Positions 26,320 to 61,325 of a stretch of 64,000 bases of DNA are shown piece by piece. The stretch is from Patescibacteria group bacterium (GTDB taxonomy: Bacteria > Patescibacteriota > Patescibacteriia > Buchananbacterales > UBA6539). The stretch lies in contig JBAZMQ010000008.1 in NCBI GenBank assembly GCA_041649675.1, positions 344 to 64,343 on the forward strand, given 5' to 3'. The notes under the pieces were generated by a model, which was not told the origin of the DNA, searched no databases, and saw only the letters and a list, made by a program, of their open reading frames with translations. The first letter of the stretch is position 1. Every line of letters begins with the position of its first letter. Position numbers and translations under genes: made by a program.

Positions 26320-27621
26320 TTAGAGTAAGGCAATAATTAGCCAAAACAGAACGGCTAAATCATTTTTGAAATAGGGCACGTCAATAAAACCGTGAACTAA
26401 AATGGTTATCATGGCAGCCATTAGGCCCAACTTAAGCCAGCGATTTTCTTTATTAACTTCGCTTAACCCTTTTTTGAAGAATTGAATTATTAGAATAATA
26501 AAAGAACTTAAACCTAACAAACCAAGTTCCAGCCAGAAGTTGAAAAAGATATTGTGTGCATAAAGTAATGGCTCCATCTTTAGTGGATTGCGCAATTGAT
26601 TTTGGATCTGGGCAAAACCTAAAATACCGCTGCCAAAAATAAAATTTTTGGGACTGCTTAATAAATACTTTTCGCTCATCTGCCATAAAATTATACGGTT
26701 TTGGCTGGATTGGCTGGTAAGATTTAATAATTTATCGGCCGCAATTGGCAAAACCAGCAGGGAAATTATAATTATTAATAGCATTAGTAGCAGTTGTAAT
26801 TTGTTGATTTTTAGCTGGAATTTTAATTGAGGTAAAAAAGCAAAAGAGATTAAAAAGATGATAGCTGCTATTAAGCCCAACCAAGTTCCTTGTGAGACAG
26901 TAAAGATGATTGCAATGATTGCTGGAATCAAAATTAGCAATTTGCCAATTGCGCCCAGCCAATTTTTAAATTCCGCAATCAGCCAGCCAAGATAAATAGT
27001 AATAATCGGACCCAGATACAAACCAACGGCGTTTGGTGAGCTAAAAATTGCAGTGACGCGGCGGCGGCTGGGAGCAATCCAAATCGGTTGGGCAATGCCA
27101 AAGGCGGTAAATTTTTGGTAAATGGCTAAAAATGAAATTAATAAAGAAGAAATTCCCAAAGCCCAAAGAATTATTTTTTTATCTTGGTCTGATTTAACAA
27201 CATTAATTAAAACCAAGAAAAACAAAATCGGTTCAATGAAATAAGCTTTCCAGAGCCCAGCGGCGGTGATTTTATTTGGGGCAATAAAAATGCTAATTGT
27301 TGCTGCGATAATAAATAGTAAAATTGGTAAGAGATATAGCTTGTAGCTTGTAGCTTGTAGCTTGTAGGGTTTGGCTTGGATAAACCAACCAAAAAAGGTT
27401 ACTAAAAGGCAAAGTTCTAAATAGGTGATTGGGACAAACCAAATTTGGCTGCGGCAAAGATAAGTGGGCAGTAAAATAATAGTGAGAGCGCAAGCGTAAA
27501 TTGATTTTTTAAAGCTGAGATAGCCTAAAACAACTAAAACAATCAGCATTAAAAAGTTTAACTGATACCAAGATTGGTTTAGAAGGTCTTGAATTTGCCA
27601 ATTGTAATCAAACCAAAACAT
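26320..27621 (-). CDS. O-antigen ligase/polymerase-like (Wzy_C/WaaL family) polytopic membrane protein. It contains an (AGCTTGT)x4 heptanucleotide repeat at 27338-27365.
   Basis: About 12 TM helices with a large periplasmic loop, the typical architecture of this family. It lies in a cluster with a flippase and a GT39 gene. Confidence 0.5.
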   Translation of the reverse strand: MFWFDYNWQIQDLLNQSWYQLNFLMLIVLVVLGYLSFKKSIYACALTIILLPTYLCRSQIWFVPITYLELCLLVTFFGWFIQAKPYKLQATSYKLYLLPILLFIIAATISIFIAPNKITAAGLWKAYFIEPILFFLVLINVVKSDQDKKIILWALGISSLLISFLAIYQKFTAFGIAQPIWIAPSRRRVTAIFSSPNAVGLYLGPIITIYLGWLIAEFKNWLGAIGKLLILIPAIIAIIFTVSQGTWLGLIAAIIFLISFAFLPQLKFQLKINKLQLLLMLLIIIISLLVLPIAADKLLNLTSQSSQNRIILWQMSEKYLLSSPKNFIFGSGILGFAQIQNQLRNPLKMEPLLYAHNIFFNFWLELGLLGLSSFIILIIQFFKKGLSEVNKENRWLKLGLMAAMITILVHGFIDVPYFKNDLAVLFWLIIALL

Positions 27622-47781: not shown

Positions 47782-49587
47782 ATGAAAAATCCCCAAATTG
47801 CCGTAATTGATTTTGGCTCACAATACACTCATTTAATTACCCGGCGCATTCGGCAGCTGGGTGTTTTAGCAAAGATTTATTCGCCATTGGTTGAAGTTAA
47901 AAATCTTAAAGGAATCAAAGGTTTAATTTTATCCGGCGGGCCAAACAGTGTTTACGATCAAACCGCAGTCAAATATAATCCCAAGTTATTTGAGTTGAAC
48001 GTACCAATCTTAGGCCTGTGCTACGGCCATCAATTAATTGCTCAACATTTGGGCGGCAAAGTCCAGCCCGGCAAAACTAAAGAATACGGTTTTGCCACTT
48101 TGGAAAAAATTGCCTCAGCAAAACTGTTAAAGGGTGTTTCTAAAACCAGCCGGATTTGGATGAGTCATGGCGACAGCGTGGTTCAATTGCCCAAAGGTTT
48201 TGTTAATTGTGCCAAAACTTCGGATTGTAATGTCGCGGCGATGGCTTGCGAAGCAAAAAAGATTTATGGCCTGCAATTTCATCCCGAAGTTGCCCATACC
48301 AAGCCGGGCCAGTTAGTTTTTAATAATTTCCTTTTTGATATTTGTCATTGCAAAAAAGATTGGTCGTTAGAAAAATATTTTTTACAAATTACCAAAGACG
48401 TTAAAAAAATTGTGGGTAAAAGAAAAGTTTTTTTACTGGTGTCTGGCGGTGTTGATTCTTCAGTTTGTTTTGCTTTGTTAGAAAAGATTTTGGGCAAAAA
48501 AAGAGTTTTTGGTTTGCATATTGATTCAGGCTCAATGCGGCTAGGCGAATCAGCCCAAGTCAAAGCTGATTTGGCCAAAGCCGGTTTTGATAATTTGGTG
48601 GTTTATGATGCGGTCAAAACTTTTTTAAATGCCGAAATTGGCGTTATTGAACCCGAAAAGAAACGTGAGATTATTGGCAGAACTTTTTTACAGGTCAAAG
48701 ACGAAGTGATGGCCAAAAATAAATTAAACCCCAAAGATTGGGTGTTGGGCCAAGGAACAATTTATCCCGATACGATTGAAACCGGCGGGACCAAGCATTC
48801 GGATAAAATTAAAACTCATCATAACCGGGTTAAAGAAGTTTTAGAATTAATGCGTTTGGGTGCTTTGGTTGAGCCGTTAGCAGAATTATATAAAGATGAA
48901 GTTCGGGCCATTGGAAAAAAATTGGGTTTGGCCGATTCGTTAATAAATCGTCATCCTTTTCCTGGGCCAGGCTTGTTTATTCGGACTTTATGCAGTAATG
49001 GACGTAAACGAGAAATCAGAAATCAGAAATCAGAAATCAGGGTGGCAGAGATTGTGGGTTCTAAGTTTAAAACTGCGATTTTGCCTTTAAAAAGCGTTGG
49101 GGTTCAAGGGGATAATCGGACTTATCGTCATCCGGCCTTGATTTCCGGGCAGGCCAAATGGTCAACGTTGCATGATTTGTCGGTTAGAATTACCAATGAA
49201 GTCCCAGAAGTTAACCGAGTGGTATATTTAGTCGCGCCACAAAAGATTAATTTTAGTAATTTAAAAATTAAACCGGCTTATTTAACCAAAGACCGTTTGG
49301 ATTTATTACGTCAAGTTGATTTTTTGGTCAACCAAGAAGTAAAAAAGGCAAAATTGTATGATAAAATTTGGCAATTTCCAATTGTCCTGGCGCCTTTAAG
49401 TTTGAATGGGGGAGAGACCATAATTTTAAGGCCGGTTGAATCCGAAGAAGCAATGACGGTAAATTTTTATCCAATGCAAAAAACAATTTTAGATAATATT
49501 GCCAAAAAGATCTTGACGGTCAAGGGCATTGATTTAGTTTTATACGATGTAACCAACAAGCCACCAGCCACGATTGAGTGGGAGTAA
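47782..49587 (+). CDS. guaA: GMP synthase (glutamine-hydrolysing), with an internal partial duplication of the C-terminal domain and a (GAAATCA)x4 tract
   Basis: GATase LCYGHQL..H..E, ATP-PPase SGGVDSSV, and C-terminal LYDKIWQFPIVLAPL. The extra segment ...AILPLKSVGVQGDNRTYRHPAL... duplicates the canonical KSVGV-GD-RTY motif. 601 aa. Confidence 0.85.
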   Translation: MKNPQIAVIDFGSQYTHLITRRIRQLGVLAKIYSPLVEVKNLKGIKGLILSGGPNSVYDQTAVKYNPKLFELNVPILGLCYGHQLIAQHLGGKVQPGKTKEYGFATLEKIASAKLLKGVSKTSRIWMSHGDSVVQLPKGFVNCAKTSDCNVAAMACEAKKIYGLQFHPEVAHTKPGQLVFNNFLFDICHCKKDWSLEKYFLQITKDVKKIVGKRKVFLLVSGGVDSSVCFALLEKILGKKRVFGLHIDSGSMRLGESAQVKADLAKAGFDNLVVYDAVKTFLNAEIGVIEPEKKREIIGRTFLQVKDEVMAKNKLNPKDWVLGQGTIYPDTIETGGTKHSDKIKTHHNRVKEVLELMRLGALVEPLAELYKDEVRAIGKKLGLADSLINRHPFPGPGLFIRTLCSNGRKREIRNQKSEIRVAEIVGSKFKTAILPLKSVGVQGDNRTYRHPALISGQAKWSTLHDLSVRITNEVPEVNRVVYLVAPQKINFSNLKIKPAYLTKDRLDLLRQVDFLVNQEVKKAKLYDKIWQFPIVLAPLSLNGGETIILRPVESEEAMTVNFYPMQKTILDNIAKKILTVKGIDLVLYDVTNKPPATIEWE

Positions 49588-51677: not shown

Positions 51678-51690
51678 AGAGTTATTGTTA

Positions 51691-51723
51691 ATATTTAGTC
51701 ACAAAAACACAAAAGCACAAAGG
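51691..51723. repeat. Left arm of a ~30-bp inverted repeat flanking the four-helix-bundle gene
   Basis: ATATTTAGTCACAAAAACACAAAAGCACAAAGG matches the reverse complement of 52092-52122 (ATATTTCACAAAAACACGAAGGCACAAAAGC). Confidence 0.6.
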
Positions 51724-51725
51724 GA

Positions 51726-52088
51726 TTATTTTTTTAGAGATTTTTCTAAATCGGAGATTTCTGTCCATAACATTGCACCGATTTCTTCGGCCAGTTTTAT
51801 TCCGATTGAATGGTCATTTTCAGTAATAAAATTTTGTTGTTGGGAAAAATGTAATAGGTATTTTGATTCTTTTAAGGAGCCGTAGGAAATTTCCAAAAAA
51901 TTTAATTGAACTAAAGGTTTTTTTCGAGCATAACCTTCAAGATAGTTCAAAATTATTGAAAGGGTTGATCGTCTCCATTGGGAAACGCTGCCATATAATT
52001 CTCCTTTAGGAAATTTTTTTGTCACCCGATAGACAAATTTGACGTATTCATCAGCTTTCATTTTTAATTTATTTTGGAATTTGCTCAT
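51726..52088 (-). CDS. Four-helix-bundle protein of the '23S rRNA intervening-sequence protein' family
   Basis: YRVTKKFPKGELYGSVSQWRRSTLSIILNYLEGYARK...EISYGSLKESKYLL closely follows the family consensus (…[30 protein letters not shown]…A.GSL.EL.T.L). 120 aa. Confidence 0.75.
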   Translation of the reverse strand: MSKFQNKLKMKADEYVKFVYRVTKKFPKGELYGSVSQWRRSTLSIILNYLEGYARKKPLVQLNFLEISYGSLKESKYLLHFSQQQNFITENDHSIGIKLAEEIGAMLWTEISDLEKSLKK

Positions 52089-52091
52089 ATT

Positions 52092-52122
52092 GCTTTTGTG
52101 CCTTCGTGTTTTTGTGAAATAT
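52092..52122. repeat. Right arm of the inverted repeat flanking the four-helix-bundle gene (in its 5' leader)
   Basis: See 51691-51723. Confidence 0.6.
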
Positions 52123-52175
52123 AAAAAGCGTAGAACCAGAAAATTGGTCTGCGCTATGTTGGTTTGTGAATACGG

Positions 52176-52260
52176 AAAAATCCCGATCGAGTCGGGATTT
52201 TCGCGCTATGTTGAGCCTAAGCTCAATTATCATTTTAAGCGCAATCCAAAATCTTGTCAA
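52176..52260 (-). promoter_or_regulatory. Putative promoter of the four-helix-bundle gene (minus strand: TTGACA 52255-52260, 17-nt spacer, TAAAAT 52232-52237) followed by a terminator-like hairpin in the leader (52176-52204)
   Basis: Read from the reverse complement. AAAAATCCCGA-CTCGA-TCGGGATTTTT hairpin with a T-run. Confidence 0.4.
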
Positions 52261-52321
52261 GACTAATTGACAATTAGGCCAAAATTAGTAATTATTATAA
52301 GGTAAAAGTAATAAAAATGGG

Positions 52322-52398
52322 TGAGTGGTGAAATTGGCCCGCCTTCGCCAAAGCTACGGCGGGTAAATATACACGCATCTATTTTAAAATTAAAAATC
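52322..52398 (+). pseudogene. Degenerate 5' portion of tRNA-Leu with a GC-rich hairpin (CCCGCCTTCGCCAAAGCTACGGCGGG, 52338-52363) inserted in the D-loop
   Basis: GAGTGGTGAAATTGG[...]TAAATATACACGCAT parallels the D-arm GTGGTGGAATTGGTATACACGCAT of the intact gene. Confidence 0.5.
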
Positions 52399-52399
52399 A

Positions 52400-52486
52400 G
52401 CAGGCGTGGTGGAATTGGTATACACGCATGCCTTAGGAGCATGTTCCCGAAAGGGATTGAGAGTTCGAGTCTCTCCGCCTGCACCA
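52400..52486 (+). tRNA. tRNA-Leu (anticodon TAG), CCA encoded
   Basis: GCAGGCG-TG-GTGGAATTGGTATACACGC-A-CATGC-CTTAGGA-GCATG-TTCCCGAAAGGGAT-TGAGAGTTCGAGTCTCTC-CGCCTGC-A-CCA. Confidence 0.85.
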
Positions 52487-52529: not shown

Positions 52530-52660
52530 AGGCGCATGCTTGCCCGCCGAAGCGAAGCGGAGGCGGGCCTTAGGAGCACGTGCCGCAAGGCTTGAGAGTT
52601 TCCGCCAAAGGCGGACCCGCCTCTGGCGGGCGAGTCTCTCCGCCTGCACCAAAAATTACA
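52530..52660 (+). pseudogene. Degenerate tRNA-Leu(TAG)-like copy lacking the acceptor/D-arm 5' part, with GC-rich hairpin insertions in the anticodon stem (52542-52568) and T-loop (52599-52631), ending in CGCCTGCACCA
   Basis: CATGC[TTGCCCGCCGAAGCGAAGCGGAGGCGGGC]CTTAGGAGCACGTG...TTGAGAGT[TTCCGCCAAAGGCGGACCCGCCTCTGGCGGGCG]AGTCTCTCCGCCTGCACCA. Confidence 0.55.

Positions 52661-57731: not shown

Positions 57732-61037
<3,306 letters not shown>

Positions 61038-61216: not shown

Positions 61217-61325
<109 letters not shown>

Follow-up and report, generated by a model that had tools for sequence, protein, structure and literature searches.

Analysis of a 64,000-nucleotide stretch of DNA from a Patescibacteria group bacterium (contig JBAZMQ010000008.1; the whole stretch is called the window below) points to a cassette of ca. 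430 bp, at positions 51691-52122, of the type of the intervening sequences (IVSs) of rRNA genes. Its PF05635 gene is bordered on both sides by octamer arrays in inverted orientation, and the whole lies in the leader of a gene for a protein with LTD and PKD domains (the LTD gene). The interpretation that we favour, and consider probable, is that arm, open reading frame (ORF) and arm are inserted and deleted as one unit, that the cassette belongs to a large family dispersed over the Patescibacteria and found in cyanobacteria as well, and that relatives without an ORF are present in rRNA.

Gene, protein and arms of the cassette

Hidden Markov model (HMM) searches gave the 120-amino-acid ORF scores of 84.1 bits with PF05635 (cut-off 33.8) and 82.5 bits with TIGR02436 (cut-off 24), in agreement with an earlier note on this DNA which had assigned the ORF to the IVS-protein family. 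The same note had placed the ORF outside rRNA; this is correct, since according to Rfam the 23S gene maps to 57732-61034 and the 5S gene to 61217-61324, whereas the ORF occupies 51726-52088 (−). An AlphaFold2 (AF2) monomer model with a predicted local distance difference test (pLDDT) score of 97 has helices at residues 3-23, 28-54, 58-84 and 90-119, the four-helix-bundle fold of the family. Foldseek comparison of this model gave the best structural matches with 2gsc (Xanthomonas XCC0516; template modelling score (TM) 0.86-0.87), followed by 2rld (Bacteroides BT_0352), bAvd (4dwl) and the Avd protein in the ribonucleoprotein of a diversity-generating retroelement (8ub7), all with TM ~0.8. A phmmer search against solved structures retrieved 2gsc only (E = 7e-9). 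Models for Avd proteins remained below their cut-offs (NF033474, 27.9 bits vs 80; PF22296, 30.8 bits vs 40), and phrog_3206 is likewise a weak Avd match. The entries 2gsc, 2rld and 4dwl contain five chains each, and the Xanthomonas protein is a homopentamer according to Lin et al. 2006, as cited in PMC4990558. On the strength of the five chains in 2gsc and 2rld and of this citation the cassette protein is, by analogy, probably a pentameric, Avd-like nucleic-acid-binding ring.

The dN/dS ratio of the cassette gene is 0.06-0.07 in comparison with two homologous loci (L083 and L084; loci compared here carry L numbers) and 0.05-0.11 overall, which indicates strong purifying selection on the protein. 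The 1816 homologues listed for it stem mostly from assemblies of Patescibacteria, or Candidate Phyla Radiation (CPR), and are typically 65-80% identical. No phage or viral copies of the gene were found, and PADLOC gave no match for the protein.

Each arm of the cassette is a tandem array of three to four octamers with the unit CACAAAAR (Table 1). The upstream trio stops 4 nt short of the ATG, and downstream the stop codon TAA is followed by TC and then by the 3' octamers. A repeat search found arms of 31 nt that are 84% complementary (51699-51729 and 52087-52117), and an outer ATATTT/AAATAT extension carries the inverted repeat to 51691 and 52122. The ungapped score of this repeat is 18, compared to a 99th percentile of 13.4 and a maximum of 16.5 for shuffled flanks across the tested loci; among 76 loci, the cassette's own 3' arm is the top partner of its 5' arm. 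In the minimum-energy structure predicted for the RNA of 51680-52130 (−), a long-range stem of 23 bp closes the whole ORF (z = −5.0; none of 100 shuffles folds as well). The imperfect inverted repeats of ~30 bp that the earlier note described are thereby confirmed, and the predicted stem is consistent with its suggestion of an ORF held in a stem as in an ORF-bearing IVS, a layout that matches the Coxiella IVS (PMC4990558). The octamer arrays in both arms, and a second terminator-like hairpin at ~52123-52161, go beyond that note. Compared with L083, ~90% of the aligned positions of the 3' arm match while the synonymous difference (pS) is 0.61, so that on this comparison the window arms are better conserved than synonymous sites; the 72 nt upstream of the ATG, including the adjacent leader hairpin, are 82% similar. 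Neither in the arms nor in the leader did Rfam find a family, whether gathering or E-value thresholds were applied.

Empty and occupied sites in the LTD leader

Syntenic loci were found by a homology search with the downstream LTD/PKD protein. The closest syntenic relative, a locus from Candidatus Buchananbacteria (L177/L178), has an LTD protein 69% identical to that of the window and, as in the window, the gene order DUF3160, tRNA-Leu(tag), LTD gene, guaA, and carries no cassette. It retains the TTGACA promoter and all three leader hairpins, including both AACATAGCGC motifs, and the last hairpin's U-run and the LTD ATG lie just 20 nt apart. In the window the cassette begins immediately 3' of the U-run of this proximal hairpin (52123-52161), and the LTD ATG follows 48 nt past the cassette stop. 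Because promoter and hairpins are intact at the empty site, the insert of the window comprises arm, ORF and arm only. A second locus (L184) is likewise without a cassette, with promoter and hairpins present. The proximal hairpin had been considered as a part of the cassette, as a similar hairpin lies upstream in L083; the empty site rules this out.

Three further loci (L179/L180, L181 and L183) have a PF05635 cassette at exactly the insertion point of the window, with arm units AATTTTGA, AATTGTTN and ATCTAAA. The cassette proteins of L179, L181 and L183 are only 22-33% identical to that of the window and to each other, whereas the LTD proteins are 53-80% identical; in the pair L179 and L181 the values are 26.4% for the cassette protein and 79.9% for the LTD protein. 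In view of the cassette dN/dS of 0.05-0.11, divergence in place cannot explain this contrast, and the comparison indicates that the LTD-leader site was hit, or its cassette exchanged, repeatedly. Conversely, related cassettes occur in unrelated contexts. The protein of L083 (P0002) is 84% identical to that of the window, and its gene is located between pth and an ORF of 82 amino acids upstream of dprA. Flanks are homologous in ~3% of the cassette pairs with 75-85% protein identity (3/117 upstream, 5/108 downstream) and are always shared by pairs that are >95% identical. Occupied and empty alleles as well as related cassettes in unrelated surroundings, the operational signs of a mobile cassette, were thus both found.

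Two other spacers of this kind hold different occupants. Upstream of an LTD orthologue, L182 has a GIY-YIG gene (2067-2360), and in Synechocystis PCC 7338 a Uma2-family endonuclease gene lies between cmr2 and cmr3 (L176, 452-1006); these genes are possibly selfish. Neither has repeat arms, so the arms belong to the PF05635 genes and not to such spacers in general.

The LTD-gene leader itself (52123-52227 (−) in the window, 3375-3480 in L177, 2880-3020 in L179, and L184) is strongly conserved despite an identity of only 52-69% between the LTD proteins. It contains three hairpins, two of them terminator-like and each of these two preceded by AAYATRGCGC. The stretch TAGGCTCAACATAGCGCGAAAA is invariant among the window, L177 and L179, and both latter loci keep the −35 hexamer TTGACA and the divergent promoter block. 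The hairpin at 52176-52204 has a core stem of 11 bp followed by U5 on the − strand; a simple terminator scan did not call it. This hairpin and the promoter at 52232-52260 had been taken as signs of attenuation of the cassette gene. Both elements exist, but they are conserved at the empty site, and as the cassette is inserted downstream of them, the gene that they attenuate, if any, is the LTD gene. The leader may be a cis-regulatory leader or attenuator of the LTD gene, or a repeated hairpin resembling repetitive extragenic palindromic (REP) elements. The 9-mer ACATAGCGC with hairpin and T-run is also found ahead of the cassettes in L083, L085, L086, L097, L015 and L112, and in eight distinct loci, the window included, the sense strand carries an element consisting of AACATAGCGC, hairpin and T-run at a distance of 35-123 nt before the cassette ATG. 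A general preference of insertion for stable hairpins was not detected, with a mean minimum free energy of −7.0 kcal/mol next to the arms and −7.7 kcal/mol in controls.

The neighbours of the cassette are the DUF3160, LTD/PKD and GMP synthase genes, and no reverse transcriptase (RT) domain or recombinase was found among them. Beyond the divergent promoter, tRNA-Leu(tag) is intact at 52400-52486. It is flanked by partial tRNA-Leu-like copies at 52307-52395 and 52530-52650, one a 5' and the other a 3' fragment, which are interrupted by small GC-rich hairpins (CCCGCC...GGCGGG, TCCGCCAAAGGCGGA) at the positions of the D-loop, anticodon loop and T-loop. ARAGORN and Rfam did not call these copies; judged by eye, L177 seems to hold similar remnants.

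Table 1. Positions in the window of the cassette, the host gene with its leader, and the hairpins in the 23S gene.
Feature	Position	Strand	Evidence or remark
Cassette 5' arm, abutting the ATG; in gene sense ATATTT CACAAAAA CACGAAGG CACAAAAG CAAT	52089..52122	-	sequence, inverted repeat, autocorrelation at lag 8, missing in L177
Four-helix-bundle gene (23S_rRNA_IVP / S23p / Avd-like), 120 aa	51726..52088	-	PF05635 and TIGR02436, AF2, Foldseek, dN/dS
Cassette 3' arm, directly after the stop; in gene sense TC CCTTTGTG CTTTTGTG TTTTTGTG ACTA AATATT	51691..51725	-	sequence, inverted repeat, fold, missing in L177
Host gene, LTD/PKD-domain protein, 640 aa	49755..51677	-	cassette lies in its 5' leader
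Host leader, proximal terminator-like hairpin, AACATAGCGC before, U-run after	52123..52161	-	fold; kept in L177 and L179
Host leader, hairpin GAAAATCCCGA...TCGGGATTTTT after the second AACATAGCGC	52172..52213	-	fold, sequence comparison
Host leader, first small hairpin, GAGCUUAGGCUC	52210..52227	-	fold, sequence comparison
Sigma-70-like promoter of the LTD-gene leader, TTGACA-17-TAAAAT, 11/12 matches	52232..52260	-	promoter scan
tRNA-Leu promoter, divergent from the LTD-leader promoter	52267-52295	+	promoter scan
ORF-less IVS-type hairpin, helix-45 loop, inverted AACAATT heptamer arrays, insert ~120 nt	59203..59267	+	z = -7.0
Second ORF-less AACAATT-type heptamer hairpin, domain III, insert ~90 nt	59613..59680	+	z = -9.0
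Third IVS-like hairpin near the 23S 5' end, units GCGAATT/GCAAATT, tip TCCCGATTTATCGGGA	57963..58026	+	sequence, BLAST

Relatives in Patescibacteria, rRNA and cyanobacteria

The family was surveyed in loci fetched from GTDB genomes (80) and metagenomes (80). The non-redundant set of homologous loci numbers 137, and almost all of them bear the label Patescibacteria/CPR. Nearly every homologous ORF is preceded by three to five tandem units of 7 or 8 nt and followed by the reverse complement of its own unit. The unit varies from locus to locus (e.g., CATTAAAA, CAAGAAAA, CTTGAAA, CATGTAA and CACATAT), around a consensus CA-nnn-AA(A), with a median of ~4.2 units per arm. An inverted-repeat score of at least 12 was obtained in 103 of the 137 loci. 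The median arm is 27 nt long, lies 7 nt from the ATG on one side and begins 5 nt past the stop on the other. A polarity with an A/C-rich 5' arm and a T/G-rich 3' arm is seen in 106 loci and the opposite in five. The mean pairing score was 16.0 for cognate arms, 8.3 for non-cognate arms and 7.1 for shuffled flanks; of 76 loci, 20 had the cognate arm as best partner and 38 had it within the top three. Autocorrelation was highest at a lag of 7 or 8 in 68/77 flanks upstream and 70/77 downstream, with a flat distribution in control regions. Although both arms share the unit type, the order of unit variants differs between them. The gene is co-directional with both neighbours in 56 of the 73 loci where both flanks are visible, and since spacers measure 10-60 nt per side in most loci, the arms essentially fill the intergenic space.

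These data also bear on the wider proposals of the earlier note. It had regarded the cassette as a relocated or mobile IVS module, and mobility is supported by the empty site, by the other cassettes at the same site and by the relative in L083; an rRNA location was found in none of 167 loci (homologous plus plasmid comparison loci, searched for 16S and 23S similarity). Likewise, cassettes flanked by inverted repeats, which it proposed to look for in relatives, do occur, in the numbers given above, and none of those in the 167 loci lies in an rRNA gene. Its emphasis on the adjacent tRNA-Leu locus did not hold: a tRNA is present within 3 kb in three of the first 60 homologous loci, and just downstream in two further loci scanned with Rfam, which makes the proximity incidental.

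Several individual loci deviate from the general layout or add to it. Small GC-rich hairpins (GTCCCGA..TCGGGAC, GGCCTGACGGCC, GGCGCTTTGCGCC) are present inside the A-rich 5' arms of the close relatives L084, L085, L086, L091 and L092. Direct instead of inverted arrays lie on both sides of the gene in L008, L011, L093, L094 and L172; in one example, between cas6 and cas4 of Pseudanabaena, they read (AAAGCTA)10 ... (AAAGCCA)10. Such loci may be tandem or rearranged cassettes. The 3' arm of L004, L010/L095, L058 and L070 seems to hold the start codon of a downstream prepilin-type gene (GFTLIEL motif), the ATG being provided by the unit TTTNNATG. In three distant genomes (L031, L040 and L043) the cassette directly follows a gene for a protein with the terminal sequence ...YDPCI(T/A/S)C(S/A)(V/T)H, which we take to resemble the C-terminal end of the large NiFe-hydrogenase subunit. 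The arm units of these cassettes are all different and the copy in L031 has an in-frame stop; the site may be another hot spot. The lack of a Shine-Dalgarno sequence was considered as a special trait and discarded, as 4-mers resembling it are rare both before cassette ORFs (5/137) and before neighbouring genes (8%). The window has two further tandem arrays. GAAATCA is repeated four times at 49006-49042, inside a GMP-synthase-like ORF (+ strand), and no inverted partner was found; this may be an orphan array half or a slippage product in coding sequence. AGCTTGT, a unit type from which the L041 and L043 arms are also built, is repeated four times at 27334-27370 with no inverted partner within 1.5 kb.

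The ORF-less IVS-like insertions that had been suspected in the 23S gene of the window were recovered. A scan for arrays of period 7 or 8 found the hairpins at 59203-59267 and 59613-59680. Covariance-model alignment placed the first in the loop at model positions 1218/1219; in comparison with E. coli 23S, its gap falls between positions 1164 and 1184, in helix 45, the classical IVS site. The second lies near model position 1530. Both are predicted to fold into helices of 5 bp, one per heptamer, separated by 2x2 internal loops; the two hairpins are paralogues, as are the sequences flanking their inserts. Around the third hairpin (57963-58026) the BLAST segments with E. coli 23S break from ~223 to 369, with ~210 extra nt; its tip TCCCGATTTATCGGGA resembles the LTD-leader hairpin TCCCGA...TCGGGA.

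Homologues on cyanobacterial plasmids, 30-46% identical, have a similar design with heptamers that are mostly inverted, for example (GGGAACA)4/(TGTTCCC)7, (GAGTAGG)n/(TCCCTAC)5 and (GGGTGTA)4/(TACACCC)4. They are located inside operons such as cas6-cas4, cmr2-cmr3 and a string of tra genes, and in one case on the opposite strand between two ribonucleotide reductase genes. Picosynechococcus PCC 7003 has the order cmr2-[arm-ORF-arm]-cmr3 whereas in PCC 7002 only 12 nt separate cmr2 and cmr3; with flanks that are 89.5% identical, the indel between these strains consists of the arms plus the ORF. The left junction was read by eye, as the MAFFT alignment misplaced it, and no target-site duplication was seen in this pair. 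The cmr2-cmr3 site of Synechocystis PCC 6714 is also empty.

Possible mechanism, alternatives and relation to known systems

According to the mechanism that we propose, the cassette, inserted right after the U-run of the conserved terminator-like hairpin and ~20 nt upstream of the LTD ATG, would be co-transcribed with the host gene. Pairing of the 5' arm, rich in A and C, with the 3' arm, rich in U and G, would then give a stem of ~23-27 bp, with the ORF looped out of the host RNA. As in the IVSs of rRNA, by analogy, RNase III would act on this stem, so that the host RNA would stay functional; lying next to the ATG, the stem would also restrict ORF translation as soon as the 3' arm is transcribed. 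Several points weigh against this picture. The role given to RNase III is purely an analogy, and because two terminator-like hairpins lie between promoter and cassette, transcription into the cassette needs read-through. The cassette encodes neither a transposase nor a recombinase, and there is no clear target-site duplication: a possible ATATT duplication at the junctions, compared to the empty site, is indistinguishable from chance in AT-rich DNA. About a quarter of the homologous loci have no convincing inverted repeat. Arm mismatches show no excess of G·U on the sense strand (134 G·U vs 139 A·C), and RNA-level selection of arm complementarity is therefore not demonstrable; a DNA-level process could maintain it. 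In L092, finally, the two arms carry mirror-image copies of a small hairpin insert.

The last two observations fit a reading in which the arms act mainly at the DNA level, as ends or recombination sites of a mobile cassette that are recognised by a trans-acting enzyme or an Avd-like pentamer, the RNA stem being incidental. We regard this as possible although not the favoured explanation; it is compatible with the IVS-type reading, and the two do not exclude each other. In one variant the ~4 units per arm could each, at 7-8 nt, accommodate one subunit of the pentamer. It would also account for arms that agree in unit type and not in variant order, for the different cassettes at the LTD site and for an indel unit that is the whole arm-ORF-arm. 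The five chains of 2gsc, 2rld and 4dwl, the presence of Avd within an RNA-protein complex in 8ub7 and the homopentamer cited in PMC4990558 would suit a pentameric binder. On the other hand, the wide variation of the units among cassettes with proteins of 60-85% identity speaks against a simple recognition of sequence by the protein. No recombinase is encoded nearby, and ORF-less copies reside in helices of rRNA, where IVSs have an established role as RNA.

The remaining alternatives fare worse. That the gene is a resident, regulated one, with its own promoter and attenuator hairpin and with the inverted repeat as a cis-regulatory device for its own expression, would explain the promoter-like site with 11 of 12 matches, the terminator-like hairpins upstream and the predicted stem next to the ATG. 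We consider it improbable, as the promoter and both hairpins are kept in the cassette-less L177, and also in L179 and L184, and belong to the LTD leader, and as most homologues lie in co-directional gene strings with spacers too short for a promoter or attenuator of their own. Still more improbable is the relic of a diversity-generating retroelement, in which an Avd gene would be left after loss of the RT and of the template and variable repeats. The weak Avd matches and the structural similarity to 4dwl and 8ub7 prompt the idea, but all Avd scores stay below cut-off while PF05635 and TIGR02436 score far above theirs, the neighbouring genes include no RT domain, and the repeats are short, tandem and inverted units, with no pair of template and variable repeats; in most homologous loci the ORF stands alone between unrelated genes. 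A chance match in AT-rich, low-complexity DNA might be suspected from the A/T-rich arms and their surroundings, and it is hardly conceivable given a repeat score above all shuffles and a similar architecture, with locus-specific units, at ~100 independent loci.

Similar to the ORF-bearing 23S IVSs of Coxiella burnetii (S23p) and Leptospira, the cassette carries a sense ORF of the same protein family in a loop closed by terminal inverted repeats, here of ~23-31 bp (repeat and predicted stem), and short tandem repeats of 8 nt stand just before its ATG. The Coxiella IVS has a terminal stem of 28 bp, with three to four GACAGAT heptamers in tandem immediately ahead of the S23p ATG, and is cut by RNase III at the first repeat (PMC4990558); excision of the cassette would be analogous to that of rRNA IVSs, which RNase III removes from the precursor with no re-ligation. 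Both types of element have a sporadic distribution that suggests horizontal spread (PMC4990558). Whereas the Coxiella ORF is reported to be decaying and probably untranslated (PMC4990558), the cassette gene, with the dN/dS values given above, is strongly constrained. The cassette at 51691-52122 is moreover not located in a 23S or 16S helix but in the 5' leader of a protein gene, and its relatives lie mostly between co-directional protein genes. Since rRNA location defines IVSs, we do not file it as one.

Short ORF-less IVSs (helix 25/45, in Salmonella and others) and the 23IS2 and 23IS4 insertions of CPR bacteria (PMC11270868) differ from the cassette by the lack of an ORF and by their position in rRNA. 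The 23S gene of the window has such insertions, one in helix 45, and they share the design of inverted tandem arrays with the cassette arms. No mention of stems built from tandem repeats was found in the CPR survey, the main text of which does not contain the word 'repeat' (PMC11270868). Like the Avd proteins of diversity-generating retroelements (4DWL, 8UB7), the cassette protein is a four-helix bundle with five-chain relatives; unlike them, to which it is 12-14% identical, it falls below the cut-offs of the Avd models and is accompanied by neither RT nor template and variable repeats. The arms further recall the short tandemly repeated repetitive (STRR) heptamers of cyanobacteria, known from older literature, in that the cyanobacterial PF05635 genes on plasmids carry tandem heptamer arrays that are mostly inverted; the units of the window, unlike these, are A-rich octamers. 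The literature search found no paper that ties STRR sequences to the PF05635 family, and we infer the link from these arrays. Miniature inverted-repeat transposable elements (MITEs), foldback elements and the group IIC introns that insert after terminators are comparable in that the cassette is discrete and small, has inverted ends and, in this lineage, lies repeatedly 3' of a terminator-like hairpin. It differs in that no transposase, RT or ribozyme is present, that its end arrays vary in sequence from copy to copy, that no clear target-site duplication was seen, and that the family as a whole shows no general hairpin preference.

Insertions in CPR rRNA that encode the PF05635 family are already published (PMC11270868), and PF05635 genes outside rRNA are commonplace in annotation. 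The inverted tandem-repeat arms at non-rRNA loci, the empty and occupied alleles and the replacement at a hot spot are undescribed in the literature found, in a search that was incomplete, so that a prior description is possible. As a broader and rather doubtful proposal, PF05635 genes with inverted arrays of 7-8 nt could form one widespread, unrecognised class of mobile cassettes, which settles in rRNA hairpins, there with or without an ORF, and in operon and leader spacers of Patescibacteria and cyanobacteria. By binding the arrays, with about one unit per subunit, an Avd-like pentamer would help to excise, protect or move the element, possibly by way of an RNA intermediate. In that case many cyanobacterial STRR arrays and many short IVSs with no ORF would represent footprints of such cassettes or their non-autonomous derivatives.

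The cassette touches questions that have stood for about three decades, namely the function of the IVS/S23p protein, the origin of rRNA IVSs and the purpose of the tandem heptamers of cyanobacteria. Together with its empty site and the other occupants of that site, it shows that gene and repeat arms are inserted as a single unit, also outside rRNA, which is replaced at a hot spot and whose cargo protein is under strong selection. Its defined junctions, the occupied and empty alleles and the culturable pair PCC 7003/PCC 7002 provide material for testing RNase III excision and binding of the repeats. For genome annotation, the leader hairpins beside this cassette count as elements of the host, and hundreds of thousands of genes annotated as "four helix bundle protein" may likewise be cargo of cassettes and not belong to the operons in which they are found.

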